Source: Amphiscolops sp. MND2022
Lineage: Eukaryota
Length of the DNA stretch: 64,000 nt
Assembly (NCBI GenBank): GCA_964187785.1
Contig: OZ076409.1
Location: 29,142,001 to 29,206,000 of the forward strand
Direction: 5' to 3'
Each line of letters opens with the position of its first letter. Positions within the stretch are counted from its first letter, which is position 1. Made by a program: the position numbers and the translations under genes. This document shows positions 1-61,816 of this stretch, one piece after another. The notes beneath the pieces are model-generated. The model saw only the letters and a program-made list of their open reading frames with translations. It was not told the DNA's origin and made no database searches.

Positions 1-2
1 GA

Positions 3-40151: not shown

Positions 40152-40163
40152 TGGTGACAGGAG
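40152..40163 (+). promoter_or_regulatory. Primer binding site of element B (possibly tRNA-Leu)
   Basis: TGGTGACAGGAG directly after the 5' LTR, complementary to a tRNA 3' end CTCCTGTCACCA; tRNA identity uncertain. Confidence 0.7.
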
Positions 40164-41323
40164 TTACCACAACCCAGGACATACCCACCCGATCATCCAG
40201 CCTACCCCCGCCCAACATGAGATATCCAGACGATATCGTGGACAAACTGCTCGGATCCCTGAAGAATGCCACACAACAGAGCGCGGGACTGCCCAGACTC
40301 CCAAAGGCACTCTCAACAACCATGCCCACATTCGATGGCCGCAATGACAAATTCGAGCATTTCGAGGACCTGTTTATGACTAGCCTGAAAGTATATCCAA
40401 ACATCTCAGAGGAAGAGCAAATTCACTACTTCCACTCCCTCCTGAGAGGCGATGCCCTACAGACGTATTGCAATATGACAGACGCAAACCGCGCCAGTTT
40501 AGACGACATCATTACCACATTCCGAAGACGACACGTTCGCCCACAATCTATAGCCACCGCAAGATGTAAGTGGGAACAGCTTTACTTTGACCCGACTCGC
40601 CAAACCTTCCAAGACTTCCTGGAGCAATACCAGAAATTGGCACAGGAGGCATATGGTGACGACGCCCCAAAGTTCATAGAAACCTCATTCTATGCAAAAA
40701 TGCCAGCGCACTTAAAACGAGTCCTTAACCAGGCAAGACTCGAGACAGAGTCGTACGAACTGATGGTCCAACACCTGGAACGCGAGATGGAGTTAAACGG
40801 ACTCCTGGCCCCAAGCGAAACAAACATAACGGGAGTAATAATAATCGATGATTATAATGATATATAATGATAATAATGATAATCGGTACATAATCGATGT
40901 ACAAGATGCCCCACAACAAACCGCCAATCCACCCAAACCAGCAGGCCCGTGTTTCGGATGTGGCAACCCAGGACATGTAATAAAGAACTGCCGGAAAACT
41001 GCTCGAGAAGCCCGCAACCGAGGCAACAGGGCACCGACTAAAATAACAAACCCATGTGAAACCTGCGGCAAAAAGAGCCATACGACACAGGAATGTTATT
41101 CTGGCGCCAACTGGGCAAACAGACCCCAATGGTGGAAGACCCCTAAAGCAACTTCACCGAATAACATCCCGCTGCCACAGAATACACAAGGTCAGTACCC
41201 TCCAGACAATACACCAGTACATCAGCAGCCATATAACAACCAAACAAATAGCCAAACGGGCTACCAACCCATGCTCCCGCAGACCACTCAACCCCAAAAC
41301 CAAACCCACGAGTTCAGCCAATC

Positions 41324-41330
41324 AAAAAAC
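41324..41330 (+). promoter_or_regulatory. -1 ribosomal frameshift heptamer A AAA AAC at the gag/pol junction
   Basis: Heptamer in the gag frame immediately before TAA; pol is in the -1 frame; downstream hairpin CTGTCG-aaacc-CGACAG. Confidence 0.8.
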
Positions 41331-41335
41331 TAAAT

Positions 41336-44300
41336 ATGCCACATCTTCGATTTGGGGAGACTGTCGAAACCCGACAGTACACAACATCCGAACCCCCAAA
41401 TTCATATGACTACGAAAAGAACACCGAGCGACATGAAGAACCATCTCTCGACTGGCAGCGAAGATGGCAGATTCACAAACTCAATAAATATAATCGCCAA
41501 AACACCGCAAAGAAAGACTACCCTCAGTGGTACCTTGACAACCCGACTGCTTACAATACTCCTAAACGACCCCTACCAGAAAGCACTTCCCCTGAAACCT
41601 ACTTCCACGACTCTGACTTCAACTGCGACCCATACTATAACCCTCAACTATATGACAAGACGACCCTAACGTTCAAACAACAGGAATGCACGCCATTTGA
41701 AGAGTACATCAGAAAAACAGGGATGAATATCTCCACCGAGCCACGCTACAGGTCCAAAACCGTCCAACCTATCCCAGACTACAACCAGGACGCCGAACAC
41801 GTAACAGAAATCCTAGTTGATATCTCACAGAACAACGTCAAATCTATACTCAAGAACCAAGGATCCTCTACCATGGCTCCCCATTCTCCACCAAAAGATC
41901 AGCCAAGAAACCCTATCAGAGCCGGTATCATACGATCCCCAACAATGGACGTGGCACCAGACAGCCACCAACACAGAAACCTCACCGACAGGACCACGAT
42001 CGAAGCCGTGGACCTGACCTCACCTATACCCAATTCAGAGACCAACATCTCCAAACCAAAAACCAAACGAATAAAGAGATCTCTTCTCCTAGAACCCTTC
42101 GTTCAACACGAGACACAGTTCTCACCCACTATCCTCAATAGTCAGCTAGAAGATGAAATCGACACCGATCGACACATCATAGCTGACGCAACCAACATGC
42201 AGTCTGAATTCCCATCAGGTGCTGCAAACGGCACACCGCAACAGGACGTTCCCAAGTCCTACCTCCCTAAGCAGACTGCAGAATATCAGAGGAACAACCA
42301 AAGTCCAGTCAGAGAAATCAACGTTCTCACCTCTCTCTCCAGTAGGCAGACCGAAAACGAAGTCGAGGACCCTCGACCCCTCAACCCTGCCGCAACTAAT
42401 ACACAATCTGGATCCCCCACCGGTGTTGTAAACGACACACCACCCCAGGACGAACCCCAGTCCTACCCCCTAGCCCAGATTGTGGAATACCTCACGAGAG
42501 ACCCCATAACAAAAGAAGAGTGCATACCAATCTTTTCAGCAGTATCCCTCAAAAAGAAGAAGAAAATGCTCTTCGCCCCCATGGACTTCCAGGACTTGAC
42601 CCTGGACGCCCTTATCGACTCTGGCGCCCTTGTAAACTGCATCTCCGAAACCGATTACAATAAAATCCTCCAAATGTCCCCCAAAGACATTGTTAAAGAG
42701 TTGGAACCACCCCCTTTCAAACTCCAAGTCGCAAATGGCGACATTGAAACGCCTACCAAAACAATCATCCTCCAATTCGAAATCGGAGACTGGAATTTTA
42801 AGGAAACTTTTATCGTGGCCAAACGACTGACAGGCCCGATTCTTGGCCTCACGTTCCTTAAAAATAACAGCGCCATCCTGGACGTGAGCCAGGGCTTGCT
42901 ACACTTCCCCCACCTCACATATTCAATCGAAACCGACGAATATACCCGTAACAGGAAACTGTACAAAGTACAAATAAAGAACCCACTCACTATTCCCCCT
43001 GAAACGACACAAACAATAACAGGCTCCACAGATATCCCATCCAACGTCGACACAACCGGTGTCATCAACCCAGCCACCAACCACTGCAGTGGCGACCCCC
43101 TCGTGGTAGCCAGTTCAATCTCAACAGCCTCAAACCGAAAAATCGACATCAGAGTAACAAATACCACCCCTACACCCTATACCATCAAACGAAACACAAC
43201 AATAGCAGAATTCAAAATCCTGTCCCCCGAAGAGGCAAAAGAACTCAAACCACTCAACACAGCAGCACTCAAAGTGCTCGCTGAAGACGACTCCGAAGAT
43301 GCGATGGTGTACATCAACGAGCTCCTGAAAACCTCAGAAAAACCATCTCACAATCAAAACTTTTGGTTTCCCACACCAGACCACCCCGGAGACCCTGCTA
43401 CCCATACCCCGATCCAGAACCGAATTCTCCGAGAAATCAAAGAACTGGAAGAAATCCAGAAACTCGACCCCAACAACAGCGAAGAGGAACGAAAAACATT
43501 CCTCCAAAGCTTCAAATGGGACGATTCACAACTCTCCGAAGATGACAAGAAAGATATCGAAGAAATACTCATAGAGTTCAACGACATCTTTGCAAGACAT
43601 CGACTGGACATTGGAATCAACCATGATTTCAAAATCAAACTCACACCGAAAACAGACGACCCCGTCTACTCACAGAGTTTGCCCTGCCCCATTAACCTGA
43701 AAGAAGATCTGACGGTCGAATTGGCCCTAATGCATTACTTCGGGATTATAACCACGCTCCCGTTCAGCAAGTATGCCAGCCCCATTTTCGCCCAAAGGAA
43801 GCCAAACGGCCGCCTGCGCCTACTAGTCGACCTCAGGAAAATCAACAACCTGATATCTGATGGTTACATTAACAACAATCATCCAGTGAGCACACTAACA
43901 GACGCGGCGCAACACCTCGCCGGCAAGAAGTTGTTTTGCAAGCTTGATTGTTCACAAGCCTACCACGTGCTGCAAATGGCAGACCAGAAGTCCGTTCAAC
44001 TTCTAGCATTCAACTTCGCCAGCAGGACATTCGCGTACCTCAGGCTAGCCCAAGGCCTGAGCCGCTCATTGTCGTCCTTTTCAAGTTTCATGAGGGAATA
44101 CCTCGACAAGGCCATAAAGGCGGACAAATGCGCTCAGTACGTGGATGACATTGGAATCGCCACCAACACTCCCGAGGAGTTAAAGAACAACTTGAGAGAA
44201 GTTTTCCAATGCATCCGCGCAGCAGGACTCCGGCTCTCCATGGCCAAATGTCAGTTCGGCGCCAAGGAAGTCGAATTCCTTGGGCGAACAATTTCCCCAG

Positions 44301-45310
44301 CAGGGGTAGCACCCCAAAGCCACAAGATCCAGAAACACCTTCAGACCACCAAATTCCCCCGGACGAAGAAGGCACTTCAAAGATACATCGGCTTCGTAAA
44401 TTACTACAGAAACTACATTCCCCGATTATCAGAGAAGATTGCCCCATTCCATGAACTCATCAAATCAGACAAGCCAGTCAAGATAGATCAGGAACTCATA
44501 TCCAATTTCGAAGCTATCAACAAATCGTTAGACAACGCATGTGGCCTTTGGCTCAAACAGCCACTGCCAAACCGGCAGTACGTACTAATGACAGACGCAA
44601 GCTTCAGGAATGCCGGATATGCCTTGATGACGGAAGAAGACCCGGAGCAAAAGATAACCTCCACCAGGAACACTTACGCTCCAGTGGCATTTGGCTCTAA
44701 AACTTTTTCACCATCCCAGTTGAAGATGTCAACCTATGCCAAAGAATTCTTAGCTATCTATTTCGCTTTTATGGAATATAGTCACATCTTGTGGGGTTCA
44801 TCCAAACCGACTATTGTCTTAACCGACAATAAATCAGTCACCAGGTTTTTCCAAACCAAGATGATACCACCCTCCCTCTGGAATGCCTGCGATTTTGTAC
44901 TGCAATTTCACTTTAAAATCGCCCATGTGCCGGGAAGGATGAATACAGCAGCCGATTTCCTCTCCCGATTAGACATTAGCCCCAAAGAAAAAGTCCTTCT
45001 CCAAATCAGAGAAGACATCCAAACGACGCCGATCCAGGTAAACATACAATCCTCCGACATCCATGAAGAAGATCAATTCTATTTTTTACCAGAGGACGAT
45101 ACTGAGACCGAAGAAGACATTTGGGAGCGTAAACAACAAGCCAGGAAAGAGATCTACACACCCCATGACCAGAACTCCGACCCCAAGAGTGAAACTGTCA
45201 AACCATCTCCCAACCCGAGAACCTACCCTTGGTCTGCAACAACATCCACGACCCAGAGCAAGAACAGCGGCGCCAACTTCACAGTGACACAAGCTTCCCG
45301 CGCAGTCTGA
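41336..45310 (+). CDS. pol of element B: protease, RT, RNase H
   Basis: LIDSGA, ILGLTFL (PR); YVDD (RT); MTDAS (RNase H). Confidence 0.95.
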   Translation: MPHLRFGETVETRQYTTSEPPNSYDYEKNTERHEEPSLDWQRRWQIHKLNKYNRQNTAKKDYPQWYLDNPTAYNTPKRPLPESTSPETYFHDSDFNCDPYYNPQLYDKTTLTFKQQECTPFEEYIRKTGMNISTEPRYRSKTVQPIPDYNQDAEHVTEILVDISQNNVKSILKNQGSSTMAPHSPPKDQPRNPIRAGIIRSPTMDVAPDSHQHRNLTDRTTIEAVDLTSPIPNSETNISKPKTKRIKRSLLLEPFVQHETQFSPTILNSQLEDEIDTDRHIIADATNMQSEFPSGAANGTPQQDVPKSYLPKQTAEYQRNNQSPVREINVLTSLSSRQTENEVEDPRPLNPAATNTQSGSPTGVVNDTPPQDEPQSYPLAQIVEYLTRDPITKEECIPIFSAVSLKKKKKMLFAPMDFQDLTLDALIDSGALVNCISETDYNKILQMSPKDIVKELEPPPFKLQVANGDIETPTKTIILQFEIGDWNFKETFIVAKRLTGPILGLTFLKNNSAILDVSQGLLHFPHLTYSIETDEYTRNRKLYKVQIKNPLTIPPETTQTITGSTDIPSNVDTTGVINPATNHCSGDPLVVASSISTASNRKIDIRVTNTTPTPYTIKRNTTIAEFKILSPEEAKELKPLNTAALKVLAEDDSEDAMVYINELLKTSEKPSHNQNFWFPTPDHPGDPATHTPIQNRILREIKELEEIQKLDPNNSEEERKTFLQSFKWDDSQLSEDDKKDIEEILIEFNDIFARHRLDIGINHDFKIKLTPKTDDPVYSQSLPCPINLKEDLTVELALMHYFGIITTLPFSKYASPIFAQRKPNGRLRLLVDLRKINNLISDGYINNNHPVSTLTDAAQHLAGKKLFCKLDCSQAYHVLQMADQKSVQLLAFNFASRTFAYLRLAQGLSRSLSSFSSFMREYLDKAIKADKCAQYVDDIGIATNTPEELKNNLREVFQCIRAAGLRLSMAKCQFGAKEVEFLGRTISPAGVAPQSHKIQKHLQTTKFPRTKKALQRYIGFVNYYRNYIPRLSEKIAPFHELIKSDKPVKIDQELISNFEAINKSLDNACGLWLKQPLPNRQYVLMTDASFRNAGYALMTEEDPEQKITSTRNTYAPVAFGSKTFSPSQLKMSTYAKEFLAIYFAFMEYSHILWGSSKPTIVLTDNKSVTRFFQTKMIPPSLWNACDFVLQFHFKIAHVPGRMNTAADFLSRLDISPKEKVLLQIREDIQTTPIQVNIQSSDIHEEDQFYFLPEDDTETEEDIWERKQQARKEIYTPHDQNSDPKSETVKPSPNPRTYPWSATTSTTQSKNSGANFTVTQASRAV

Positions 45311-46770
45311 GACCGTACCAAGACCAGGACCCCGTCCTCAGAAACCTCAAACTGAAAATCCTAAAAGAACCGTACGACACCCAACTTCTGAACGACGACT
45401 CCAGAGCGACCAAATACCTCACACAAGATGATCGCATCATCATAAAAGATGGACTCCTGTATCGACAATATTTTGGCGATACAGGGAAAGTCAAGTACTT
45501 GCAAGTACTACTCCCCCAGCAATTGGTTGATGAACTCATACAACACCACCACGGCAAATTCGGGAAACATCCAGGTATAGCTAAAACCATCCAGCAATGC
45601 CGCGAAAAGTACTACTTCCCGGGGCTAGCCGCCCGAATAGCCACCCACATTGCACAATGCCCAGAATGCGCCCAGACGAAAAGGATACCAAATGCCAACA
45701 TCACACCCCCGCTCATCGACATGTCCAAAATAGCAATGGGTCCAGAAGACGCGCTACAAATGGACATCGTCCCTTTTGACGACCCTTCGGGAGGATACAC
45801 CGCAGTCATCACAGCGATGGATGTATTCTCCCGTTATCTATTCGCGTATAGCGTCGCCAGAGTCGACACCAAGACTGTCACACGGGTCCTTACAGATATC
45901 ATCACAAGACACTGCTATCTCCCAACAACGATCATCACGGACAAAGGATCCCAATTCATATCGGAGGCAATGCAACAAACAACAGCCATTCTCGGAATCC
46001 AACTGAAACATGCCACCACCAAACATGCCCAGACGGTAGGCATCCTAGAAAGGACACACGCCTCGCTCAAAGAAAGTCTAAAAATCATGACGGGAGAGAG
46101 GCGAACGATGTGGCACCAATTCTTACCAATGGCAGTATTAAATTACAACACTTCCTACCACACTTCATTAGGCTGCGAACCCAGCCGAGTTTTCCATGGA
46201 AGAGTGCCATACAACGTACTCGACCTAAAGTACGGTCTTAAACCCCAGGCCACTGCCCCAACCAACCACGAAATAGCTGAGGGAGTGTTACAACAAACAC
46301 AAGAAATCCTCAAGCAGAGCCAACAAGCCCTGATGCAAGCCTACGTCCGACATATGCGTTATTATGACCGGAAAACATCAGCACACCCCTTGGTAGTAAA
46401 CGACTACTGCTATGCTTTGCATCCAAAGGCGCATCGCCAAGCGACGAAATTGCCGTTTCGGGAATACCTTTGGACGGGACCATATACCCTGGTCAAAACC
46501 CTACCCAACAACAACTATCTGATACGCAAACTCCAAACCAATTTCACACAGATCCTGCACAGAATCAGGCTACGCCCCTTCGCAAGCAGTCACAAGCTGC
46601 CTGACATTACAGTCCCCCCCAAGGATTTCCAGCAGGATACAGAGGTAGCCATACAGCACGACGACCTCTTCGCAATGGCGTGGGAAGAACTTTACAAAGA
46701 ATGCCCTAACCAACCCGCAAACAAACAATTACCCGAACCTGAAGTGATCCAACCCAGAAACAATCAATGA
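45229..46770 (+). CDS. Integrase of element B (frameshifted from pol)
   Basis: HGKFGKHPG...CPEC zinc finger; MDVFSRY, TDKGSQF, GILERTH core; WTGPY motif. Confidence 0.93.
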   Translation: MVCNNIHDPEQEQRRQLHSDTSFPRSLRPYQDQDPVLRNLKLKILKEPYDTQLLNDDSRATKYLTQDDRIIIKDGLLYRQYFGDTGKVKYLQVLLPQQLVDELIQHHHGKFGKHPGIAKTIQQCREKYYFPGLAARIATHIAQCPECAQTKRIPNANITPPLIDMSKIAMGPEDALQMDIVPFDDPSGGYTAVITAMDVFSRYLFAYSVARVDTKTVTRVLTDIITRHCYLPTTIITDKGSQFISEAMQQTTAILGIQLKHATTKHAQTVGILERTHASLKESLKIMTGERRTMWHQFLPMAVLNYNTSYHTSLGCEPSRVFHGRVPYNVLDLKYGLKPQATAPTNHEIAEGVLQQTQEILKQSQQALMQAYVRHMRYYDRKTSAHPLVVNDYCYALHPKAHRQATKLPFREYLWTGPYTLVKTLPNNNYLIRKLQTNFTQILHRIRLRPFASSHKLPDITVPPKDFQQDTEVAIQHDDLFAMAWEELYKECPNQPANKQLPEPEVIQPRNNQ

Positions 46771-47419
46771 ACCCACCCACCCCGGCCCCCCAAGCCCTAG
46801 CCTAATATACGACCCCGAAATCATTCCTAACCACCCAAGTGACCAGACACAGCACCCACTAACCGATATCGATGATGAACCCGAAAATCATACACCCGCA
46901 CCTCAATCCCCCCGGAAATCCCATTACAACCTTCGAAAAAACCCGACGTCAAATTGGAAACCAGATTATGCCTATTACAATGCCCTAACAGCCAATTCAA
47001 CAAATTTGACACATTCTTCCGACGGACTGGACAACGGCCCAGAATTACAGGTTTTAGCGGACCTCGGCCCAGACGGCAGTCTGAGATCAGAAAATTAATC
47101 AGGCCCAGGCACTGGCCTGGACCACAATCCTATGACCTGACTTCAAATCTCTTCAAATTACAACGGCTCTCACTCACTCTACTGTACTCTATGACTCGGA
47201 TGAAAACAATACAGAGGCTAAATACTAAATTGAATGACCCAGTGGACCACCGAGCTGCCTCAAATCTTTTCTACGCTCCATAATATCAGAGCATGTTTTT
47301 TTCTTCTCTAACAACGGAACCGACAGACGGAACCTTATATCAAAACAATGGCTACACAATAAAGAAACAACAAAGAAAATAAATCAAAGTCATCTATCAA
47401 AGTTTAGTTTCAAATAGTT

Positions 47420-50400
47420 TCAACAGGATTTCCCTTGCCGCGCAGCACGTTTACCTCCTTTTCCCGTCTGAGATGACGCACACGACCCAGGCTGACTACC
47501 TTCCACAGAGGCACGACCAACAGTAGAACTTGAAGGCACTACAGCACTAGATGACATCCGAGTCCGCCAGTCATTCACTTGCCCAGAATAATAGGCATTG
47601 TAACACTCAAACAGACTGTTGTAAATCTCTTCAATGGGATGCCGACTAACACCACCACAAGGATTGAAGGCGCCACAACTCAAGAACTGAGGACCATTCG
47701 GCAGATTCATTTTCAACTCCTCCAAACATTCTACAGTCAGCAAATCGGAAGACATGAATTTAGGATGTAGTACAAATGACTGTACACTTCGGAGACCTGA
47801 CCGGATCACAGAAGGAGACAAACTTGTTCCGCTAGTTGAAATATCAACAGGAGGCAACGACTTAGGAGCAGGACAAACGATCACTCGGACCAGCCGCACA
47901 ACTTGCTTTACAAAGGCCCGACACTGGAAACTCTCATGTCCCTCCAGATACTTGAAGACATCAGAGATCTGCGAACTATCGACACTCCGCTGCCGTAAAT
48001 CTATAACCAAGGACTTAAACTCGTTCGTGGCGGCATCCCGTTCCACATCGCCCAGACATCCCGATTCCTGGAGACAGAAGACAAGGTCCTGAAACAAGTC
48101 CACAATATACTCAGCGTCACCACCCAATAACATGTCGATACTAAGACAACTGAGTGACCGCGCAACACGAGACTTGGCATAAGAGCATGAGCCAAGAACT
48201 TTCAGGAACTCCAATAAATATCCTTGACATTCACGAAGAAACACCCGTCGAGGACTCTCGTCAAAACCACGCAGCGCTTTCATGATACTGGGTTCTCCCT
48301 GAAGACATTCGGAGGCAGTCACATTCGCCCAACTGTTCAGGGGTTTGTCTATATAGTCAGACCAATTGTCGATGGATGGTAGCTGACTTATCTTCTTCAC
48401 CTTGCTTAACAAGCTCCAATAGAAAAAGCAAAAATCAGTGTAACTCCTGCAAGCATAATCTGCAACATCCGATTCAAATAACCTCTTGCAATTTGATCGA
48501 AAACACAGCAAAAGGACATGCAACAAGGCCAGTCGAGGCAGACCCAAACGGTCTGAACACAAGAGGGAATCCAGATCCACGACATTGACATTCTTCCTCA
48601 TCAACAGGGTATCGTTCGACACACAAATCTTCACATCAGACCAATTGTCCAGGAGCTCTTGCAATACAATGCATAAATTTTCCGGAGGAACAACCCCAGA
48701 CTCCAAGCAGAGACGAAATTGCGGCAAGTTCAGAAGCCAAGCCTGGGGAGCAAATTTTTTCAAACGTTGCGTCAGATACTCTATGACAGCAAAGGGATCC
48801 ACGGATCCAACACAAACCAAACTGGCATCGCGAACCAAACGACGCAGAAGATCAACATCAAAGATGGTAGCAACAACAGGTACAGGTCGACCCATAGAAC
48901 GGCACCAATCCATGTAAGCGTTAAATAACACAGGCGGGCAGTTTTGAATAGCAACAGGGCCATGACGAGTAGACACCAAAGACAGCACGCTGGACAGGCA
49001 ACGAATCTCGGCTTCACAGGAGACAGCTCCAACGTCTTCATCCACGAGACACACTTCCCGCAAAGAGTCATCGGGACAGCATCGGACAGTACATCGCACC
49101 CCAGAGAATGACGATTGCACTGCCAAGCTAAAAGGGCTGTCGCCAAGCCATGACTTCACACGACGAAGTACGCGTGGGTAAAGGGTCTGGACTATCACCA
49201 CCAAGGTTTCAGTCTTACTCCAGGTAACACAGGCATACGGACTGTCAACTGGAAGGGTCGTACGGAACTGGCTCCACAGACGACGGAGAAACATCTGCGA
49301 GCCACCACTCCTCAGTAGCTCAAATAAACAACCCACAAGAGTCGTAGGAGGCACATTGGACGGGACGCCAACCAATGCATTCACCTCGTCCTCGACAAAG
49401 TTGTTCATTTTTCCCAGAGTAACTGGTGGCGTTTTTTCAATCTCAGCTCGCAATTCCAACGAAACTTCACTGACAGCGATGGCATCAAATTTCTCAGTAT
49501 AGATGAAGTCTTCGTGGTCAAATCGGTAACGCCGATCCTTTGCGAAATGGCCCTTGCACTTAAAGTGCCTCCAGATGCCTCGAGGCCCTCGGGACAGGAA
49601 AGACACATCTTTACGGCACACTGAGCAATTAAATCCATTGGGGCTCTTATCATTCCGACGACTAACAAACAGCCTGGGTATTGGGTGATTAGTCATGGCC
49701 TTAGTCAGAACATGCCTCTCGGTCTGTTTCTTCGCACGTTCCTCGTCTCGAGCCAGAAGCCGCTCCTTTCTAAGCTCAACAGGATCCACAACACGCCCAG
49801 GATCACTGGCGTCAATTCCTTTCCGCTTCAACAAACGGGACAGCTCTTCGAATTCTAAAATAAAAAACCTTCAATCAACCAACAAAATAACGACGAAACA
49901 GACAAACCGGAAAGTACACCATCAAAACATACGGCAAACAACTACAACCAAACACCCAACAGCCGAAGAAACAACAAATACCATACGAAATGAAGAAGAA
50001 ACTTGAGAAAATACTCACGTCTAGCCAAATTTTTAGTCTCTTTCTGCGTCTCCGTCCGCTCAGCCCGGGCAGCACTTCGAGCCAACATGACACACTGTGC
50101 GGCTGACATCACAACAGGAGAACCAGTGGGGACAGACTGCAGACCAGCTGATAACAAATATAATAAAATATCAAAAACACAATGGCAGAAGGAAAAGGAA
50201 ACGAACAGCTAGACAAACTACACATTCGAAAGATCATACAGAGGATAGATCAAACAGAAGCAAGAAAAACAAATAGGGAAACATACCACTCTCCCACTCG
50301 TTATGGATGACAGAGGGCTCCAACCCTACTGCCGTCCGACCATGTTGAGTTCGGGTGTGTCGAGAGGATTCATCAGGAAGCATAGAGGCAATGTCACTTT

Positions 50401-51276
50401 CCTGAGCAGGCGTCTCCAAAGCAGCCTCGCATACAAAAACATCACCCTCTGTAGACAATCCAATCCCTGGTCCGTGCCCCAGTTCAGCGACTAAAACAAA
50501 CGACATAGAAATATCTCAAAAGGAGCATCACAACTCGCAAATAAACGACTCCTAACAAGTACAGTACAAACGACAAGAAGGAGGAAGGAATACCTACTTT
50601 CGAGAGTCTTCGAAGCAGAAACAGTCGGCGGATCATACTCCTCGCCACAACTGTCCATCAGGGTGAAAGGCCTCGGAATGACCCCGGCAACGACATCAGC
50701 CAATCGCACACGCTTAGCTGACCGGACACTACTTGTCGAAAGCATCCGACTGGACCGAGACTGTTTCTTCTGCTTGCGCTGTGATTTTGAACTGGCGCTA
50801 GGACAAAAATCCGCGTCGAGCTCATCATCAGTCACTGTAGAAAGTAGATGTAAAAAAGAACGCGTTCATACAAAACGAGAAAGTGCCGGCCACCCATTTA
50901 ATTTCTAGGAAAGCTTACCTTTCTTGTTCGTCAAGTAATCAATGTCATGACGATTGTCGCTTGTAGCAGAATGGTAGGACCCACTCTCAGGACAGCTCTC
51001 ACCATCAGTCTCAACAATCTCATCCTCGGTAACATCCTTTTCGCCAAATCCTCGTCCTGCCGTCTCGGTCACTGTACCTGCAACAGCCTCTCCAGTTTCA
51101 TCGCGACTGCCAGTAACACTTGCCTCATCACTGCCATCCCTGTCATCACAACCACGTACTTTCTCCTCTCCACGAATAACTGACTCGACGACTGATTCCA
51201 CCTCAGCCTCACTTTCTTTCAAACCAACCTCCCGACTGTGACAAAGTAAGGCATTATCTTCTTCAGTGGAGCTCAT
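47420..51276 (-). CDS. Five-exon antisense gene inside element B, predicted 1120 aa: acidic N-terminus, BED-like zinc finger, hAT-transposase-like body
   Basis: Exons 51276-50919, 50834-50598, 50490-50287, 50147-50019, 49854-47420; four GT-AG phase-1 introns join five annotated ORFs into a 3363-nt open frame. CSVC...IWRHFKCKGH finger. Confidence 0.85.
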
Positions 51277-51365
51277 GTCTCAAAACTTTCTGAAAAATAC
51301 AAAAACTATAACACAAAGAAGATGTGGCGTAAAGCAAGGAAATTTCTACTATCAAAAGTTATCTA

Positions 51366-51374
51366 CTATATAAG
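51366..51374. promoter_or_regulatory. Candidate TATA box of an internal, possibly bidirectional promoter
   Basis: CTATATAAG lies between the divergent ATGs at 51276 (-) and 51497 (+). Confidence 0.4.
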
Positions 51375-51496
51375 GAGAGTTGTTCAGTCTGCCAGCTGAA
51401 CAATTCATGGAGTTGACACAAACCGTGTGAACAAATTTTCCAAGCGAAGCAAATCAGTTGTACTAAAAATTGACTGACGCTTAGTTTACTACTACA

Positions 51497-52081
51497 ATGA
51501 ATCATCCCAATTCAAACAGCAAAATGGACGAAGACGTCTTCATTCTCGAACGAGATCAACAGCAGCAGCCCGAACAAAGAGCCGGTACACCGCCACCAGA
51601 TTATAACCTAATTACCACGCGGCAAACTAACATTACTTACGAAATCGTTAAAACACAGGACTACCACGTAGTCCTAGTACATGAAAAAACGCCGGCCGAT
51701 ACTACGAACACAGAAAACGAGATGGGAGTCATCAGACGTTTCACGCAAGACAACCCAGTGATCCCCGAAGACACATTTATGAGTCCGGTCAGGCAATTCG
51801 ACCGTGAAATTTACGATGATCCCGACTACAACGTTGATAGCCCGATAAGTTTCTACAGTAGCTCAGAAGGCTACTATTCGGGAAGTGATTGGGAGACAGA
51901 CTCATCTTGGCGATCCTACAATTCATCAACTGACGATCTCCCAACGCTATTTGAGACCCCGATTCGATCGATTTCCCAATTTCTTCTTCCTGAGGGAACT
52001 GGGTACAGAAGCCGAGGACTGTCACAGCCCCGACTGAGCTGCGAGTATTGCAACAAACACAACCCAGTCTTCGAAGAATAA
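51497..52081 (+). CDS. Small acidic/Ser-rich ORF (194 aa) of element B, running into the 3' LTR
   Basis: ATG in ACAATG context, open through the PPT region and the first 62 nt of the LTR; PPPDY and CEYC motifs. Confidence 0.55.
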   Translation: MNHPNSNSKMDEDVFILERDQQQQPEQRAGTPPPDYNLITTRQTNITYEIVKTQDYHVVLVHEKTPADTTNTENEMGVIRRFTQDNPVIPEDTFMSPVRQFDREIYDDPDYNVDSPISFYSSSEGYYSGSDWETDSSWRSYNSSTDDLPTLFETPIRSISQFLLPEGTGYRSRGLSQPRLSCEYCNKHNPVFEE

Positions 52082-53925
52082 ATTGGAAAATGATCAAAAG
52101 AAGAGGAAATAGACAGCGAACAAACAATCAGAAACAAAGGAGCTATACAATATAAATTTGAAGTTAAATTAATAAATATATGCATATTAGTATTATTATC
52201 ATAATATTGTACACTTATATAAATACGTACTTACGGAATAACGGAGCTATTTGCGCAGTTAATAATAATACAATACTATGTAATAATAATAATCGAATCG
52301 CACCGCTCAGTGAATGAACTGAGAAATCGAAGGCGGAACTGAGGCCTGGCAGCCGGCCTCAAATACTCGCACTGAAGCGGCGGCCTGGCAGGCAGCCTGA
52401 GAATTGCAACCTCAGCGGTTTAATATGCAAGCGCGCGCTATAGTGAATACATGTAAATGAACCAATGTCTAGTGCAGTGATTTATTAACAATACGAATGC
52501 AAATATACCAACAATTGAGATTACTGTGCTAACTTAATAGAACATCACGTACTACGGCCTGGGATGCGGCCTGAGAATTAATTACGATAAATCAATCACG
52601 AAAGTGAAAGATGATGATGCTACCATGTAACTTTGTCTCAAAATGAAGCCAGAGATTATTATCTATGATCTTAAACTATATTGTAGTTTAAAATAATACA
52701 TATAACGTTCTTTTACATGTAAATGTTGATTAATCTATAAACGGGCCTGAACCGCGGCCTGAACCAAAGATTTAGTACCGAATATTAAACCAAGTGTTAA
52801 TAACATGCATATCCTGTTCCCTGAATCTGTTGTCGTTCAATTGCATTAAATACCTTTCCGAACAATATATCTGATGCTGTTTATAATTAATAGTTGCTTT
52901 ACCTACTGAACATATTTGTCCGTCCCGGACTATGGCCTGGGACCAGGCTTTGTGTTATTAACCAAAATCAGAGCTACAAATACTGTAGAAGCAATTCTAC
53001 TCTTTCATTTGAAGCCTAATGTGTAATCTGTGTTAAATTTCATTCAAATTGTTGCTGATTTATTTAATTTAGGGAAATATTTGTAAAGAAAATTGGTTGT
53101 CATCATTTTTTCCCAAATTTGTGCTGTTAATCAATCTTATTCAGTGAGTCATTGCGCGTGTCGTTGATAATTTTTTCAGTTCGGCATCCTGAAGAGGCGG
53201 GAAATTGGAGGCGAAGGGAAGCGGAGTCGCAACTCAGGCCGGAAGTGGACGCGTGCTTTTCTTCGGAAAACATGAACAAGCTGAAAGCTTGAGTTCGACA
53301 AAGCGGAACCGAACTTCCTGTTTCCCTGCCTCGGACGGACGCCGGACTGAACAAAATGTGAAGTATGTTCGTGTCTTTCCCCCGATTTCCGGGATGGAAA
53401 GTATAAATACAATGCGAGCTAGAAGCCATTTTTAGTTGAATTTGTTATTTTGCGAAACAATTATCTTTCGTTTAACGATAATTAAAAATCTTGAAACGTC
53501 ACACTTTGTCACTTGAGAACTTGCACTAATTTCCTTAAAAGAAAATCGAGAATTATCAAGACTAAGTACGATGCCAGAACGTAGCTCCAAAAGAAAAGCC
53601 AGAAGGGTTTCTCCTGTGAACTCTTTAGACGAACCTGAATCTTCTAGCATGAGAACTGAAAACACTGCTAGTTTGTCTGATAAGGATTTTACGGAATTAT
53701 CTGAAAAGATAGAAAAATCTGTAAGTAAAAGAATCAAAGACGCGGAAGTCGGACAGCGCGAAATTCTGAAGATGATAGAGAACCTGACTTCTAAAATCGA
53801 TACGCTGACAGAGAGACCGTCTAACAACGTGCGTCATGGTCCCGACGACGAGGATGCGGAAAACACGGAATATAGGTATAGACTAGTTGAACCAAGTGAT
53901 TTACTCCCGAATCACGGTCAACACA
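52020..53925 (+). repeat. 3' LTR of element B (1906 bp)
   Basis: Copy of the 5' LTR with about 15 substitutions seen by eye, a 20-bp insertion and two small deletions. Confidence 0.96.
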
Positions 53926-54019
53926 CAATCTATGAAGGGTACCATTTCCATACTCTCAACCTTAGCATTTCGCAACAAAAGGATCCTATCTCTCCCAAGA
54001 AACAGTCTGATTTTTATTC

Positions 54020-55170
54020 TTTTGCGTCTGCAAGGTAAACTGGCAAACTACTTACCAAGCTTTACGACGGCCTGGTTGACAATTTGCGGACAATTTCTAT
54101 ATCTGATATGTCCAGGAAAGGCACTTGCAAAAACCACTTATCAAGAACCTTCAATAGGTGATTCGCAACTAATTTCAATGAAAATTTTAGCTTGCGTTAC
54201 TTTGAATAAGTTTCGGAAGTCGGTGAAGCAATTACTGCATCTTTGACTTTGCACTTATTCTGTTTCGCAAACATAAAGTAGCTTTAAACTGTGACTATAG
54301 GAATCAACTTAGCTGTCCTGGTGAAGAGGAGCTTCTGTTGATCTGCTAAACCAATTGATCGATCCCAATCCTTGTGTCCACGATAACTTTCTCAAGCAAA
54401 AATATCGCAACCATATGCAATATAATAAATTGACGTTGGAATTTCGAAACAATATAATATCACTTGTTTAACCCCAAAAAAGCTCTTCAATAGCCAGAGT
54501 TAACTGAATTAATTGTACGAGAAACTTCCAAGCTTTCACTTTCTTCAATACTTGAGTAGCAAAGTCGACTGATTTGAATCTCTACTTGGTTGCTGTGAGT
54601 CTTAGTAGGAGTTAACTCTGGTTACTTTAGCATACAGGAAATACCAAATGGCGGATGTTTGTGGTTAAATTTACCATCGCCATACGAGCGCCTTGATATA
54701 TAGAATAAGCAGAAACAAATTATTTACCTGGGCTAGATGTATACACCAAAATATGTAAAAGTATATATAAAAGGCATTCATTTAAGCAAGATTAAGGCAT
54801 ACATTTACACATTTTATTTGCTGTCAAATACTCAGTGAAGTTGACAAATAGTCCTCATGGGTCCTAGAGACACCCACGTAGCCCAAATATGGAATTCATA
54901 TTAAGTTAAATACGATAAACAAAGAATAAAGTCCAAATATACACTGACTTTGAAAAAGGAATCCAAAATGGGACGTAAGAGGGGAATTGAAAATGTTTTG
55001 GCTTCGATTTTCGATTTTATAGTTTAAATCTCTCATTTGGGTCAAAATATGTCGATTGGGCGAAAACTAGCACTCAAATTCAATTCTACACATTTTTACA
55101 GCTTTTTAAAACTGGCTAACTCGACTTATTTTTCCTTCAATTTTTCGGAACAAATTTTGAGGCGCCAACA
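54020..55170 (-). repeat. 3' LTR of the BEL/Pao element (1151 bp)
   Basis: Direct repeat of 61817-62968; preceded on the minus strand by GAAAACGGGGCCGGCAT (PPT-like). Confidence 0.95.
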
Positions 55171-58100
55171 ATGCCGGCCCCGTTTTCAGCTCGAAAACGC
55201 TTTTCAAAAAGTGGCGCCAGTTTAACCACAGGTCGTTTCAGGGCTCCATCGACAGTTTTGATTAGTGCTGATCTCACAATACCATCTTTTCCAGGGAATA
55301 CTTCCATGACTCGCGCCATCTTGTAGTGAGACCTTCTAACATTGTCGTCTATCAGCCAAACAAGATCTCCAACTTGAATATTTGGCTCTGACTTGTTCCA
55401 TTGTGCTCTTACCTTGTTCTGTGGAAGGTATTCTTTCACCCATCTGTTCCAAATTATGTCTGCATAATCTTGGCTTGATCTAAACATCTTTCTATGGTTA
55501 GCATAAACCTCTGCGCTTGGAATAAAGGGAATGCAAACATTCGCTCAACCAATAATAAAATGGTTCGGTGTAAGTGCTTCGAGATCTTCAGGATCATCGC
55601 TTGCTGGAGTAATAGGACGCGCATTTAATGTTTGTTCCACTAAGCACATAGTTGTCAATAAAACTTCATCTGTAAGAGATCGATTACCCAATATAGCCAC
55701 CATTGCCTTTTTGCAACTTCTAACTAATCTCTCCCATACACCACCAAAATGGGGTGCGCCAGGAGGGTTAAACTTCCATACAAAGTGCTTCTGAGCAAGC
55801 TCTGACGTTATTTGATCTTGATTCCATGAGTTGATGTACTCCTTCAACTCTCTTGCTGATCTAACGAAGTTAGTACCATTATCGCTGATGATAGTAGTCG
55901 GCTTGCCACGTCTAGCAATAAATCTGTTGATAGCTACCAAGCAAAAATCTGTGTCAAGACTTCGAACCACTTCGATATGTACTGCTCTGGTAGTTAAACA
56001 TGTAAATAAGCAGCACCAACGTTTCATAGATCTTCTTAATAATTTCACCTCAAACGGACCGAAATAATCCATCCCAACGTTGGTGAACGGATATGACTGA
56101 TAATCAAGTCTCTCTGGGGGTAAGTCGGCCATGAACGGGGTTTTATTCTGTGCACGTAATTTGCGACAGAACACACAACTAGTTTTAACACTTCTCAAAG
56201 CATTTCGTAACCCGATTATCCAAAATTTTTGTTGAAAAACACTTCTCACATACTCTACACCTTCATGATTGTGTTCGAAGTGTAGATCTCGCAACATGGT
56301 CATTACCATGTCGTGTTTAGTAGATAGCAATACTGGGTGACGCTGTTCGAAGCTCAAGTTGGCATGTTTGATGCGACCCCTAATTCTGATAACTCCTTTT
56401 TCATCAAAGAAGGGTGCAAATTTTGATAGATTTCCGCCGTTTTTAGTTTTACCGAAACTTTCCTTCTCATCAAAAAGGTCCGGGAAAGATTCTTTTTGAA
56501 ACATTTTCAAAACTTTTTCTTCTGCTCGGTTCAATTCTTCAACAAGTAAAACTTTAGATTGACTTTTATACTTCAACCGCAAACAAAACGCGATAACACG
56601 GACGCATTTCGAGAAACTACTAAATTTTTTCCAATCAACAGGTGGCTCCTGAGTCATACTTGTGTTCGCAATTACTGCAACTTCAGCATGATCATCAGAA
56701 ATCACGTGAATTGGATGCAAAGATAACGTCCAATCCTCAGGCTGTTCTTTGAACCAAGAAGGTCCGGTTAACCATTCACTTCCAGATAATTTTTCTATAG
56801 TTATACCACGAGTTCCAATGTCAGATGGATTCAACTCGCCTCGGATATGTTTCCATTCGTCAATGGTGGCCTTTTCCAGGATTTCAGCTGCTCTGTTGGC
56901 AACAAAGACATTCTGCTTTTTGTCCGCTGAGTTTAACCATTGCAATACAGTAACGGAATCTGTCCAATGAGTTACACCATTAATAGGTAAATCGTGTTCT
57001 TGAATGATCAACTTTCTCAACCTCACAGAATACAAGGCTGCTTGTAGCTCTAGACGAGAAATAGACAACTGTTTGATAGGAGCTATTTTGCATTTGCCCA
57101 ACACAAAGGACACTTCGATGCCATCTTCGAGTTCTCCTCGAAAATATGCAACAATGCACATTGCTTCCAAAGAGGCATCACTGAAAATATGTAACTGCAC
57201 GTTCTTGGGGATATTGGAAAAATACTTCCGGGAAAGAGATGTCTGCTTAATTGTCTGCATTTCTTGTACCCACTCGAAGAATGTTCGCTTATCTTCTTCA
57301 CTGATATTTTCGTCCCACGTCTGACCAAAACGGATCCAAATACTCTTCAAAAGCATTCTCATTCGCATGGTGAACGGTGCGAAGATTCCCATGGGATCAA
57401 ATACAGATGAAACAAAGGATAGTACCACTCGTTGCGTTACTTCTTGTGGACATTCTTTGTTTGGTCCTCGGTAGACTTGAAGACTGTCGGAATCTATGGT
57501 CCATTCGAGACCTAGGATGGGCGATGAATCCGCATTCAAAGTAAATTCATTAGATTCCAGATGGTCTTCCGAGGGGATAATTTCAAGCACTTCAGGGCAA
57601 TTGCTCGCCCATTTCTTCAAAGTAAAGCCACTGCGCTTCAGTGTTTCCACTAACTGTTGATAACATTCAATGGCCTCTTGTGGTGTATCAACACTCTTGA
57701 CAAGATCGTCCATGTAGAAGTTTCTGTCTATTGTAGCGGCTGCTAAAGGAAACTCTCTTTTGTTATCTCTACCGCCCTGTTGGAAACCATAATTGGCACA
57801 CGTTGGGGAACTCTTTGCTCCGAACACATGCCTATTATACTCGAAAATTCCAATGTTATCTTCTGGTTTATCTCGCCAAAGAAAACGTAGAACTCTACAT
57901 TCTTCTTTCGGAACTGCTACTTGTAAAAACATTGACTCTATATCGGCAGTGATTGCTATTAGGTGCTCTCTGAACCTGAAAACAATTCCCACTAAGTTGC
58001 GCAATAAATCAGGTCCACTGAGAAGTTTGTCATTCAGCGAACAGCCTCTAAACTTTGAAGCTGCATTGCAAACTCTTCTGACCTTGCCTGGTTTATGTGG

Positions 58101-61100
58101 ATGTTTCACTGGGTGATGAGGTAAGTACCATTGCATATCATTCTCTGTACTGGAAACTTCTTCCTGATCCAGCTTTCGAATAAAATGGTTTTCCAAGTCC
58201 TTCTCAATGGTAGCTTTGTAAGCTTCTTTCAGTTCAAGGTCTTTCTCCAACCTTTTTTCCATCGACAAGAACTGCTGATATGCTGAGTAATAATTGTTAG
58301 GCAGATCGGGATTGTCATCAACCCACATTAAAGCAACTTCATAACGTTCACCGTTATGCTTTGTTGTTCTTTCTAAAATTGACAGTGCTCTCTTTTCTTC
58401 TTTGGATCGACCGGAGACATCACACACTGACGCGTATGTCTCCATGTCCCACCATTTTTTCATCTGATTTGGCAGTGGGTCGGATGCAACTGAAAGGTTG
58501 CAAGAAACCGATATGTTACTTGTTTCCTTTTTTGGCAAGGCTCCGCTAATGGTCCAACCCAGTGCTGTTTTAACTGCCCATGGTTGATTTCTTTCGCCAG
58601 ATTTGTATTCCAGCGGCCTGATCAAATAATAAGCATCCTGTCCGAAAATCACTTTAACATCAGTCATTGAGACTTTAATATTAGGCAGATCAGATAAATA
58701 TTGGTACTCTTCTTTTAGTTTTCTGAAGTCATAGTCTTTTTCACCAACATTTAGGTTAGGATGACTGCAGAACGTTACAGTCTCTCCAGCCGTTTCTGCT
58801 TCGCTGGAAACCACTTTGGCTGTTACTATTTGCGTTTTCAAATCAGACAAACCATGAATGCCAGCAACGGACATTACGGACTCTTTACCTTTCAACCTGA
58901 GAAGATCAACCAAACTTTGATCCATAAACGAAACAGTGGATCCGGTATCACAGAGCGCAATGGTTTCAACGCAACGTTTTTCATTACCTATCGAAATAGG
59001 AATCAGTTGTAAGAAACCGTTATTGCCTGTCGACATCATAGAAGAGCTGCCGGCCCTGCTTTGAGGCACCGAGTCTTCTGTTTTCTTGTCATTGGTGACT
59101 TTATCTATTTTCTGCGCATCAGAGTGTAGAAGTCTATTGTATTTCTTAGTGCAACCATTCACACCGCAGACACGTTCTGATTTGCAGTCTTTAATCAGGT
59201 GAGAATTAAGACAACAGAAACAAAGTTTCAGTTTTTTCAACGTTTCATACCTTTCGTTGACAGCTTGCTGTTTGAATTTGTTGCACATCCAAATTTTATG
59301 TTCGCCATCTTTTAATGGACATTGCTTAATAGAAGTTGATGTTGGTTTACCTTGGTCATTGGCAGCAAATGTTGAAGTCTTAACCTTTTCGGTTGATCCA
59401 GTGGCTTTCTTCTCAAATGGTGTTTTGAATTGCACCATCATTTCATCATGCACATAGGCAACTTTATTTAGCCACTCGCTAAATTTGCAAAGATCTGCAT
59501 TATAGTAGCTTTTGCTTTTTGCAAGGAAAAACCATTTTGATTTCAATTCAGGAGGTAACTTTCTCAAAGCTGAATTGAGGACTGATTCTGAGTACAAATC
59601 TCCAGTGAAACCAAATTGTTTTAATACGTTGACACAAGTAGTGATCAACTGAGCATACTTTATAATAGCTGCTGAGTCATGCGACTTGATAAACGGACTC
59701 AGATGGATTTGCTTCATCTGCGCATTCACAATTGTTTGCGGACGTCCGAAATTGGTAACCAAAGCGTTCCATGCAGCACTATACATGATTCCTGAGTACC
59801 CAAGACCAGCAATTGCCGCCTTGGCTTTACCTTTAAAGAGCATTTTCAAATGACTCATTTTTGCATTGTCATCGATTGGTGCGTTATGGTAGGTTGCTGT
59901 ACACGCTGGACCATTCCGGCCATTCCAATGGATCTCCGTGAAAGTCAGATAATTTTAACTTAGGTAAACTTGTTTGAACAAAAAGTACAGGTCGCTGTAC
60001 AGGTAATGCTGGGGTAAAGGAAAGAAAAGGATTTTCTACTTTGAAAGTGGGATTTGCGAATTCATGTTTAGGCTTCGGTTCGTCATTGCGTTGCTGAAGT
60101 GAAGGGTTTGTTTTCGGAAAACTGATTCCAGCGTTTTTTCTCGGAGGTGACTTACTGGTACCTCTGCTTTGAGGTTGCGAAGTCAGCAATTGATTTCTTT
60201 GAGGAGAGTGTTTTGGAAATCTCTGAGGTAGTCTTCTTGATCCATATTTGATTTCTACCTCTCTTCTAGATTCCTTCGGTTGTGAAAAGCCCTTTTCGAG
60301 ATTTTCATCACTTCGTTCTAACCAGCTTCTGATGTCACTGTTTTTGTCTTCTTCTAGTGTGAGAGACATCAAGCTGGGACAAATCGACAAAGCACGAACT
60401 GACCCCTCAGCTTCTTCTATTTGCAGTCTCATTTCGTGCTGCTCAAACGCTTTTCTGCTTTCCATTTCAGCAATTTCAGCTTCCGCTTGTAGATCTAGGA
60501 GCTTCTGATGCATCTCCATTTCCATTTGCTTTTTCGTTTTCTCTATTTTCAGTTCTCGCTGCCTTTTCTCAATTTCTAACTGAGACTTTTGTTCTAGCAC
60601 TTTAGCATGCATCTCTAAGCGTCGTAGTTCACTAACCCTTGACAACTCGGAACCCACCCTTGAGCCCAACGGTTTGCAGATATCACTTTTCGGCAAAGTT
60701 CTTGAAGGTGAGAAGTCCACTAATGAACGTCGCTTCACTGTACTCAAAGTCGCTGATCTTGTATGCCGAGGAGCAACTCCCGTACGGTTTTCACTCTTAT
60801 CAAACGCTGTGGGTTGTTTAACATCTCTTAGCAATTTCAGACTCTTTTCTAGTGTATCGTTTGCACTTTGGCGAGTTTGACTACCTTCATCACCAGTCGA
60901 TGTCACTGGAATGTCTTTCATGGAGGTAGTTTCCCCCAACCCATCTGAAGATATTGGTTGGTTCCAATGATCTTTTACTTCATTCAAACGATCGACATAG
61001 TTCAATGAATCTGTCGTCGCTTGTTGTATTTTCACACTGAAGTCTCTAATTTCCTTTTCAAACATTGACAACTCTCCAATTGATTCCGTTTTTAGCTGGC

Positions 61101-61617: not shown

Positions 61618-61794
61618 TGTGGATTAGCTTTTTAACGAATCCGAAAACGGGACTTTTCTTTCAGTTCCATTTTTTGACACGGTCATTAATTGAGGATCAT
61701 AAAACCCACCTTCAGCCATTGTCTTTTGCTTTTCTCACAGCGGTCAGATAGGCAAATTTCACAAAGCTCAAATAGGTTAAATTTGCAGAGTGCC

Positions 61795-61813: not shown

Positions 61814-61816
61814 AAA

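Follow-up and report, generated by a model that had tools for sequence, protein, structure and literature searches.

An intron-bearing antisense gene with a predicted hAT-transposase fold, carried by a Ty3/Gypsy retrotransposon clade of Amphiscolops

Antisense open reading frames (ORFs) situated between pol and the 3′ long terminal repeat (LTR) are known from plant Ty3/Gypsy retrotransposons, among them gene23 of maize Grande and the ORFs of rice RIRE2 and of Retand (PMC7264820, PMC11963269). As presented in the main texts of these papers, the Retand ORFs carry a TRP28 (PF04195) domain, Grande has an internal promoter, and a nuclear or DNA-binding role is suspected for the encoded proteins (PMC7264820, PMC11963269). 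We analysed 64,000 nucleotides of DNA from Amphiscolops sp. MND2022 (contig OZ076409.1, positions 29,142,001 to 29,206,000 of the forward strand; hereafter the window), in which positions 38262–53925 are a single 15.7-kb Ty3/Gypsy LTR retrotransposon. On its opposite strand, in the interval from the integrase to the 3′ LTR, this element houses a gene. In position and orientation it agrees with the plant antisense ORFs, and like them it is found in most copies of its lineage. By contrast, its host is an animal, it has four conserved introns and its product has a predicted transposase fold. The plant proteins have no recognised relatives or carry TRP28, a domain without a match in the window protein (Pfam, E ≤ 1), and the word ‘intron’ is absent from both main texts (PMC7264820, PMC11963269). 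We judge the gene to be a variant of the antisense accessory genes known from the plant elements.

Several other described systems resemble this locus in part. Retroviral antisense genes such as HBZ of human T-cell leukaemia virus type 1 (HTLV-1) are described as spliced (PMC10974842, PMC11963269). HBZ is thereby a precedent for a spliced antisense mRNA that encodes a nuclear regulatory protein of a retroelement, both splicing and role being predictions in the present case. However, HBZ is a small bZIP protein whose gene begins in the 3′ LTR, and it is unrelated to the protein described here in sequence and fold. A second parallel is env, which is swapped among retroviruses and endogenous retroviruses: in both cases the third gene, downstream of pol, is a recombining module with a history distinct from that of pol. 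The env gene is a sense envelope gene, whereas the module considered here is a putative antisense transcription unit. VANC of the Arabidopsis VANDAL elements offers a possible functional analogy, as an accessory protein that is encoded by a transposon, evolves fast, binds DNA and acts on the family of that transposon; it is reportedly a DNA-transposon protein that is not derived from a transposase. LTR elements of bdelloid rotifers are described as capturing extra ORFs of other kinds; in the text of that report ‘antisense’ concerns small RNAs (PMC5408684). In the full-text literature, no hAT-like gene within an LTR retrotransposon was found; Repbase and Dfam were outside the search.

The closest structural relatives are the hAT transposases, exemplified by Hermes, and the host genes derived from them. 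Like Hermes, the window protein has an N-terminal zinc finger, an RNase H-like core split by a helical insertion, and a C-terminal part. It differs from Hermes in having no detectable sequence similarity, an apparently non-acidic residue at the first catalytic position, and neither inverted repeats nor a transposon of its own. It also has a 300-residue N-terminal extension and ∼110 extra C-terminal residues, and is encoded by a retrotransposon. Domesticated hAT genes, including those for the ZBED proteins, DAYSLEEPER, GTF2IRD2 and Kat1, are hAT-derived and kept for DNA binding or regulation, as is predicted here, and they include the nearest clusters in the ESM Atlas. Unlike those single- or low-copy host genes, the gene described here is carried by a mobile retroelement and decays along with dead copies.

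The antisense gene comprises five minus-strand exons (51276–47420) that join through four GT-AG, phase-1 introns into a frame of 1120 amino acids followed by a stop codon, with no internal stop. Exon 1 (50919–51276; 358 nt) starts with an ATG at 51276 and encodes an acidic, apparently low-complexity stretch. Exon 2 (50598–50834; 237 nt) encodes the basic cluster KSQRKQKKQSRSSR, and is followed by exon 3 (50287–50490; 204 nt) and exon 4 (50019–50147; 129 nt). Exon 5 (47420–49854), which includes the stop codon, encodes the zinc finger and the whole of the hAT-like fold. The introns, likewise on the minus strand, are located at 50835–50918 (intron 1; 84 nt; GTAAGC...CTACAG), 50491–50597 (intron 2; 107 nt; GTAGGT...TTTTAG), 50148–50286 (intron 3; 139 nt; GTATGT...ATCAG) and 49855–50018 (intron 4; 164 nt; GTGAGT...TTTTAG; phase 1). 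Each ends in AG behind a pyrimidine tract. If intron 1 is retained, the frame hits a TAG in the fifth codon. This structure reproduces exactly the exons, introns and intact frame of the original prediction, which had been made from the letters of the window without database searches.

Conservation of this structure was assessed by aligning the region with 12 further copies of the gene in the genome. In three other lineages of the gene, whose DNA is 60–70% identical to that of the window, the GT and AG of all four introns were retained in eight of eight copies. Two splice sites have been lost to mutation in L012 and L018, both of them decayed copies, and a donor of L018 falls in an alignment gap. 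Over the eight diverged copies, exon length differences were multiples of three in 35 of 40 comparisons, and intron length differences mostly were not. When the window exon borders were transferred to the aligned sequences, an intact full-length frame with the same phases was obtained in 8 of 13 sequences, with all four lineages covered; the other five carry frame-breaking indels or stops. Judged from these alignments, the structure of the antisense gene is in excess of chance expectation. As antisense introns cannot be removed from genomic RNA, they are copied into every new insertion. The introns of this gene survive retrotransposition because they are antisense on the genomic RNA and hence unspliceable.

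The gene is fixed in its position within the element. In all 30 loci fetched around exon-5 matches, the C-terminus of the integrase lies just downstream of the antisense gene, tail-to-tail with it. A second clade in the same genome has the same arrangement: its protein is 49% identical to that of the window and its integrase 66–67% identical, and 40 of its 54 matches are without a stop. In a third clade (loci L061–L063; C6, C10 and C7), the protein is 26–36% identical and the integrase 52%, and the gene is likewise found beside the integrase; 86 of its 95 matches are without a stop. The equivalent of exon 5 in this clade is split by two further introns, one of which is clean (GTAAGT...TTTTAG, 120–121 nt), indicating intron gain or loss within a retroelement-borne gene. 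Overall, the gene adjoins a Gypsy integrase in each of the 37 loci fetched (30, 4 and 3 per clade), none of which is a single- or low-copy host gene outside mobile elements. The occurrence of the gene in the same place across clades indicates that the gene was acquired early with respect to the diversification of this Gypsy clade, its intron–exon structure having evolved since. No inverted repeats flank the gene: between 46700 and 52100, the sole inverted pair was an internal 22-nt match of 82% identity, an 8-bp duplication not having been searched for separately. These data bear out the proposal that the gene is integral to the retroelement, as opposed to a DNA transposon nested in it.

Comparison of the four lineages of the gene revealed constraint that differs along the protein. 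The proportion of synonymous differences (pS) was 0.70–0.97 and thus saturated. The proportion of nonsynonymous differences (pN) was 0.09–0.11 in the zinc-finger region (pN/pS 0.11–0.13), 0.16–0.20 in the core (pN/pS 0.21–0.26) and 0.24–0.28 in exons 1–4 (pN/pS 0.34). The last 40 residues were near neutral, with a pN/pS of 0.5–0.95. Within the protein, conservation peaks in the finger region, where the lineages are 84–86% identical. The original prediction had named a ratio of nonsynonymous to synonymous substitution rates near 1 as a result that would count against it; pN/pS across copies of the family was instead 0.11–0.34, and the exon structure was kept. According to these comparisons, the antisense gene is real and under purifying selection.

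We also searched the 1.07-Gb assembly for exon 5. It matched at E = 0 in all 55 scored places, 37 of which were without a stop. With 37 of 55 copies free of stops overall, and 5 of 15 in the window's own lineage, the counts indicate that selection acts on the active element lineage and that dead copies decay. The scored matches of the three clades number 55, 54 and 95 (at least 204 places), and are spread across the chromosomes. Separately, two copies of the antisense gene, L025 and L026 (C11:32276921–32282619), occur ∼3.2 kb apart in the same orientation, and the DNA on the integrase side of L026 is unrelated (45–52% identity). This layout suggests a tandem or rearranged arrangement.

Evidence for the nature of the encoded protein was obtained from structure prediction. 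We modelled the 816-residue exon-5 ORF with AlphaFold2 using 20 sequences; the mean predicted local distance difference test (pLDDT) score was 73.9. The model contains the succession β1-β2-β3-α-β4-α at residues 247–326, followed by a long helical region. In Foldseek searches, the top 10 rows were Hermes chains, with E-values of 5e-4 to 4e-3 and a probability of 0.99–1.00; the next entry had an E-value of 0.11. VIA-align matched residues 206–707 of the model to residues 133–609 of Hermes with a Z score of 12.8 and a root-mean-square deviation (RMSD) of 5.3 Å over 374–398 aligned residues, the runner-up fold being RAG1 with a Z score of 5.9. A Foldseek-independent search of 48,161 chains gave the same answer: Hermes alone reached Z ≥ 8 (11.5), and below it stood RAG1, an IS4-type transposase and Tn5 transposase (Z 5.3–5.8). 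In the ESM Atlas, which uses language-model features, the named neighbours were all hAT-derived (Dimer_Tnp_hAT, DUF4371, FAM200-ZBED5 and GTF2IRD2-like; 0.87–0.91); we count this neighbourhood as a lead, short of proof.

The predicted model thus has the organization of the hAT superfamily, an RNase H-like core interrupted by a helical insertion and superposable on Hermes. The hAT-fold region corresponds to 47750–49255 on the minus strand (residues 206–707 of the exon-5 ORF) and consists of the RNase H-like core, an all-helical insertion domain and a C-terminal part. A hAT dimerisation domain recognisable by sequence (PF05699, SERxFS) was not found; only the fold of that region aligns, to Hermes residue 609. 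On the strength of the model, the protein is one of hAT-transposase fold and probably descends from a hAT transposase. It is outside the hAT family by sequence criteria, yet has the hAT fold. The hAT derivation advanced in the original prediction is therefore upheld at the level of fold, and the motifs that it had quoted (CSVC...RHFKCKGH, PFSLAVQSS and VKQVVRLVRVIVCP) are all present. As a whole, the protein has three parts: a poorly conserved acidic/basic N-terminus encoded by exons 1–4, a strictly conserved C2H2 finger region and a complete hAT fold.

The zinc finger, C-x2-C-x16-H-x5-H, is encoded at 49547–49627 on the minus strand and has C82, C85, H102 and H108 of the exon-5 ORF as its ligands. 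No substitution of any of the four was seen in 31 sequences, whose identity goes as low as 30%. In a model of the fragment comprising residues 55–215 (pLDDT 82.4), the region forms a β-hairpin followed by a helix (β-β-α). This fragment had no significant structural match: the closest in Foldseek was survivin, at an E-value of 0.83, and Z scores stayed below 5 for all chains.

The residues expected to form a catalytic site were compared with those of ordinary hAT transposases of the same genome. Strand β1 (residues 247–253) reads FSLAVQS, versus SLTSDIW in the local hAT consensus (the PFSLAVQSS and SLTSDIWT regions, respectively). Offsets taken from alignments to retroviral integrase cores put the first aspartate at residues 251–252, and position 252, a glutamine in the window protein, varies as Q/H/L/R/K across the family. 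The position after β4, a candidate for the second aspartate, varies as N/G/D, and there is no counterpart to the CxxH motif seen in the local hAT consensus. Some acidic residues are conserved: the D/E at residue 676, which may correspond to the third catalytic residue, the nearly invariant D244, and E278, another conserved acidic residue near the core. Catalysis by DDE enzymes requires all three carboxylates. From the motif and the strand position, we infer that the protein has lost catalysis.

The history of the antisense gene is distinct from that of its carrier. The backbone comparison drew on 11 copies over ∼1.2 kb of integrase and on two copies over ∼2.5 kb of the 3′ side. According to sliding identity, the window is 95–99% identical to L023, L024 and L027–L030 leftward of ∼47220–47340, on the integrase side, and 93–96% identical to L027 and L029, the copies extended there, rightward of ∼51400 through the 3′ LTR. 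Within the antisense transcription unit, identity for these pairs drops to 50–80%. Pairwise matrices resolved four cassette lineages that are mutually 68–70% identical in exon 5: lineage A, with the window and L002; lineage B, with L016 and L020, together with L024 and L027 at 88%; lineage C, with L021, L026 and L030; and lineage D, with L023, L028 and L029. All four were found on a 97%-identical backbone. The window and L030 are 97% identical in backbone and 69% in cassette; for L021 and L030 the relation is reversed, with 85% identity in backbone and 95% in cassette. In a 30-nt identity scan, the left breakpoints differed by lineage (∼47340 for L027, ∼47220 for L029 and L030). These breakpoints lie in the 3′ untranslated end of the antisense cassette (47220–47419, minus strand). 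The right breakpoint falls in a block at 51330–51400 with hardly any variation among the four lineages.

We considered whether the divergence confined to the cassette stems from hyper-editing in a duplex of sense and antisense RNA, and rejected the idea: the transition/transversion ratio between cassettes is 1.0–1.2, and the incongruence also occurs in reverse, with 95%-identical cassettes on 85%-identical backbones. With transitions about as frequent as transversions, the divergence between cassettes is old and is not a product of editing, and the mosaic requires recombination. The antisense gene therefore behaves, in these alignments, as a swappable cassette of which four ancient versions occur on near-identical pol/LTR backbones, a feature of the locus that the original prediction did not contain. 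Copy-choice recombination between co-packaged RNAs is known to yield mosaics, and template switching of this kind is the simplest explanation for the swapping of cassettes.

The near-invariant block at 51330–51400 includes TATATAG at 51372–51366, 96 nt upstream of the antisense ATG. In view of these sequence features, the block, read on the minus strand, appears to be the antisense gene's own promoter. Intron 1 is also conserved. It is 78–89% identical between cassette lineages, more than the flanking exons (61–68%), and contains an invariant GGTGGCCRGC block at 50885–50897 and a perfect 10-bp palindrome, GAACGCGTTC, at 50858–50867, each of which occurs once in the window. The intron may serve as a site of regulation or, in the sense RNA, as a cis element. 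Hermes uses its BED fingers to read short repeats and is a tetramer of dimers, as described in PMC10368747. The idea that the GGTGGCC block corresponds to the Hermes subterminal repeat GTGGC was dropped, as that repeat has been re-evaluated and the BED site given as AAGT (PMC10368747).

Overall, we are highly confident that the gene encodes a real, element-selected protein of hAT fold. Probably, it is a genuine accessory gene of a large, old Ty3/Gypsy clade, and its product a non-catalytic, finger-guided DNA-binding helper. In the mechanism that we propose, the antisense protein would be made from its own TATA promoter and would enter the nucleus by virtue of the basic clusters in exon 2 and the C-terminus. 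The invariant finger would bind DNA, with the inactive transposase body acting as a scaffold for DNA binding or assembly, and the loss of the first catalytic carboxylate would mean that the protein no longer cuts DNA. For the molecular activity taken by itself, we lean towards a non-catalytic DNA-binding factor. The biological role is a more tentative matter: promotion of the element's own transcription, or its shielding from silencing, is a possibility that we put forward with some reserve. Among the candidate roles, we rank transcriptional activation or anti-silencing first, followed by integration targeting and by repression or interference between lineages.

A number of observations weigh against this reading. 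Transcription of the gene, its start site and all four splice junctions are predicted entirely from comparison of copies. None of four poly(A)-signal hexamers was found on the minus strand of 46900–47422, within 520 nt downstream of the stop codon. Only 5 of the 15 exon-5 copies in the window's own lineage are free of stops. By sequence, the hAT relationship is not apparent: Pfam returned nothing at E ≤ 1 for the window protein and nothing at E ≤ 0.1 for 19 relatives, and a profile search of PDB sequences found no family, the best match being to an unrelated spike fragment at E = 0.1. When two alignments of the family were compared by hhalign with seven ordinary hAT transposases from the same genome, all of which carry PF05699 and some of which carry zf-BED and DUF659, the probabilities were 0.17 and 0.10. 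Homology to hAT is thus a matter of predicted structure, at an RMSD of ∼5 Å and 11% identity. The first catalytic position appears non-acidic in an approximate mapping from motif, strand position and integrase-alignment offsets, and D/E676 and D244 could belong to an acidic site. The description of the finger as BED-like stands for its C2H2 ligands and for the β-β-α fold of the model, and does not extend to its family: zf-BED gave no Pfam match, and BED structures appeared only at E-values of 2.8–6.8 among unrelated rows. ‘BED-like’ accordingly describes the spacing of the ligands. Finally, the association of one integrase with four versions of the cassette argues against a tightly co-evolved partnership between the two, and is silent on function.

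Other roles and origins were weighed against the same data. An integration cofactor would use DNA-binding or target-capture surfaces inherited from the transposase to tether the pre-integration complex to particular sites, as chromodomains do in chromoviruses. Such a role fits with selection on the whole transposase fold, beyond the finger, and with the direct adjacency of the gene to the integrase in every clade examined. However, three insertion sites, a very small sample, share no flank or motif (their duplications begin CAATC, CTCCT and CTCAA), and an integrase region of 97–99% identity is paired with four cassette versions that are ∼75% identical in protein, with no sign of co-variation. 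We consider an integration cofactor unlikely. The coexistence of four ancient cassette versions on one backbone, exchanged as units, is typical of specificity or immunity modules and could instead point to a repressor or interference factor that controls copy number or excludes rival lineages, the versions being kept by frequency-dependent selection. Catalytically dead derivatives of transposases that act as repressors are also known, the KP protein of the P element being an example. Against this, the promoter block and the intron-1 motifs are common to all versions and not version-specific, and the finger region is the part most conserved between versions, suggesting a common DNA specificity. 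Repression, too, we hold to be improbable. A further reading is that the protein is a specificity module in conflict with host silencing or with rival lineages, at least four versions being under frequency-dependent selection and shuffled onto the most successful backbone. This is speculative, and we would give it less weight than a role in transcription or anti-silencing. If true, the retrotransposon would have an exchangeable, intron-bearing ‘third gene’ in the role of an env or immunity region, built from the enzyme of another transposon.

The two remaining alternatives have little to commend them. A transposase that still moves some DNA substrate would account for the retention of a complete fold and of conserved acidic residues near the core (D244, E278 and D/E676). 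The variation at the first- and second-aspartate positions, the absence of CxxH and the lack of inverted repeats flanking the gene make continued activity very improbable. The slightest chance of all is given to a trivial feature, be it a hAT transposon nested in the element, a host gene transduced on a single occasion or a frame that is open by chance on an A-poor strand. It is true that ordinary hAT elements are abundant in the genome and that the minus strand is T/G-rich (plus-strand AT skew of +0.24), which lowers the frequency of stop codons. Nevertheless, all three forms of this explanation are refuted by the fixed place and orientation of the gene, seen in all 30 loci and again in the two deeper clades, the low pN/pS at saturated pS, and a confident and specific fold; inverted repeats are also lacking. 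A DNA-binding accessory gene of the Gypsy clade remains the reading that we prefer.

The carrier element has the hallmarks of Ty3/Gypsy: LTRs with TG...CA ends, a target duplication, the order protease, reverse transcriptase, RNase H and integrase, and a CCHC knuckle in gag. The 5′ LTR (38262–40151) and the 3′ LTR (52020–53925), both on the plus strand and delimited by self-BLAST and by reading of the ends and flanks, are each ∼1.9 kb in length and are 97.96% identical over 1911 columns (38261–40151 versus 52019–53925 in the self-BLAST). Ahead of the 3′ LTR lies the purine-rich tract AGAAGCCGAGGA. The element is flanked by a 5-bp target duplication, CAATC, at 38257–38261 and 53926–53930. On the plus strand, the order is a gag-like ORF, a CCHC nucleocapsid ORF, protease–reverse transcriptase–RNase H, and integrase. 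The gag region (39743–41330) gave weak Pfam matches to DUF1759 and Retrotrans_gag and has a CCHC motif. Its capsid-like part is in frame 2, open from within the LTR to 40864, and in the window copy the CCHC nucleocapsid part (40845–41330; frame 0) is out of frame with it. In pol (41252–46770), protease, reverse transcriptase and RNase H occupy 41252–45310 and integrase occupies 45193–46770 in another frame; Pfam matches were RVT_1 (3e-23), RT_RNaseH, rve (4e-16) and Integrase_H2C2. A one-base length difference near 45197 throws RNase H and integrase out of frame in the window copy. It is present in none of four other copies over the 701-base stretch compared, where three have an uninterrupted frame of 233 amino acids and the fourth is broken elsewhere. 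Hence both gag and pol are frameshifted in this copy, as had been noted at the outset.

Other features of the carrier were observed. The gag frame is open from the 5′ LTR through the primer-binding site (39743–40217, plus strand), with Met codons at 39797, 39875 and 39998, and the Gag start may lie inside the LTR; yeast Ty1 reportedly has its gag start in the LTR. The plus strand of the element is A-/C-rich over 40000–52000, the antisense gene included (AT skew +0.19 to +0.35, GC skew −0.15 to −0.30). As a consequence, the antisense protein is written in T/G-rich codons, and the mutational bias of the element shapes the gene on the opposite strand. No tandem repeats were found inside the element. 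A second extra ORF is present on the plus strand at 51497–52081 (∼194 amino acids). It ends ∼60 nt inside the 3′ LTR and is head-to-head with the antisense gene, the two ATGs being ∼220 nt apart. This ORF is also open in a copy whose DNA is 71% identical (pN 0.205, pS 0.696, ratio 0.30 over 198 codons). It had no Pfam match and is probably a further accessory gene.

The window contains other mobile elements. Another Gypsy-type element, with a similarly A/C-rich plus strand, occupies 1–14000 (plus strand) and has gag-pol at 1646–6487. In its ORF at 6460–9570 (plus strand), the first ∼125 residues match the integrase core and are followed by ∼900 residues without a Pfam match; a sense ORF of 1400 amino acids at 9785–13987 also had no Pfam match. 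A second LTR retrotransposon is present on the minus strand at 54020–62968, 94 bp from the Gypsy 3′ LTR. Its LTRs (54020–55170 and 61817–62968) are 97.8% identical and its ORF encodes 1469 amino acids (55545–59954); we take it to be of BEL/Pao type, a putative label. BEL/Pao elements are not known outside metazoans, and the window is animal DNA. Finally, a non-LTR, LINE-type ORF of 914 amino acids with endonuclease and reverse-transcriptase domains lies on the minus strand at 25922–28666.

The gene has implications for the annotation of genomes and for the biology of retroelements. Gene finders would call thousands of such copies multi-exon host genes, and the locus serves as a warning in this respect. 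It also shows, in a natural setting, that introns in antisense orientation pass through reverse transcription. The gene would be an animal equivalent of the antisense ORFs of plant Gypsy elements, whose presence is unexplained, and one with a product of recognisable fold; this makes the role of such ORFs testable by DNA-binding, localisation and expression assays. Host-domesticated transposases are well known. A protein of transposase fold that was adopted by a retrotransposon, long kept throughout a diversified clade and exchanged as a cassette would be the domestication of one selfish element by another.

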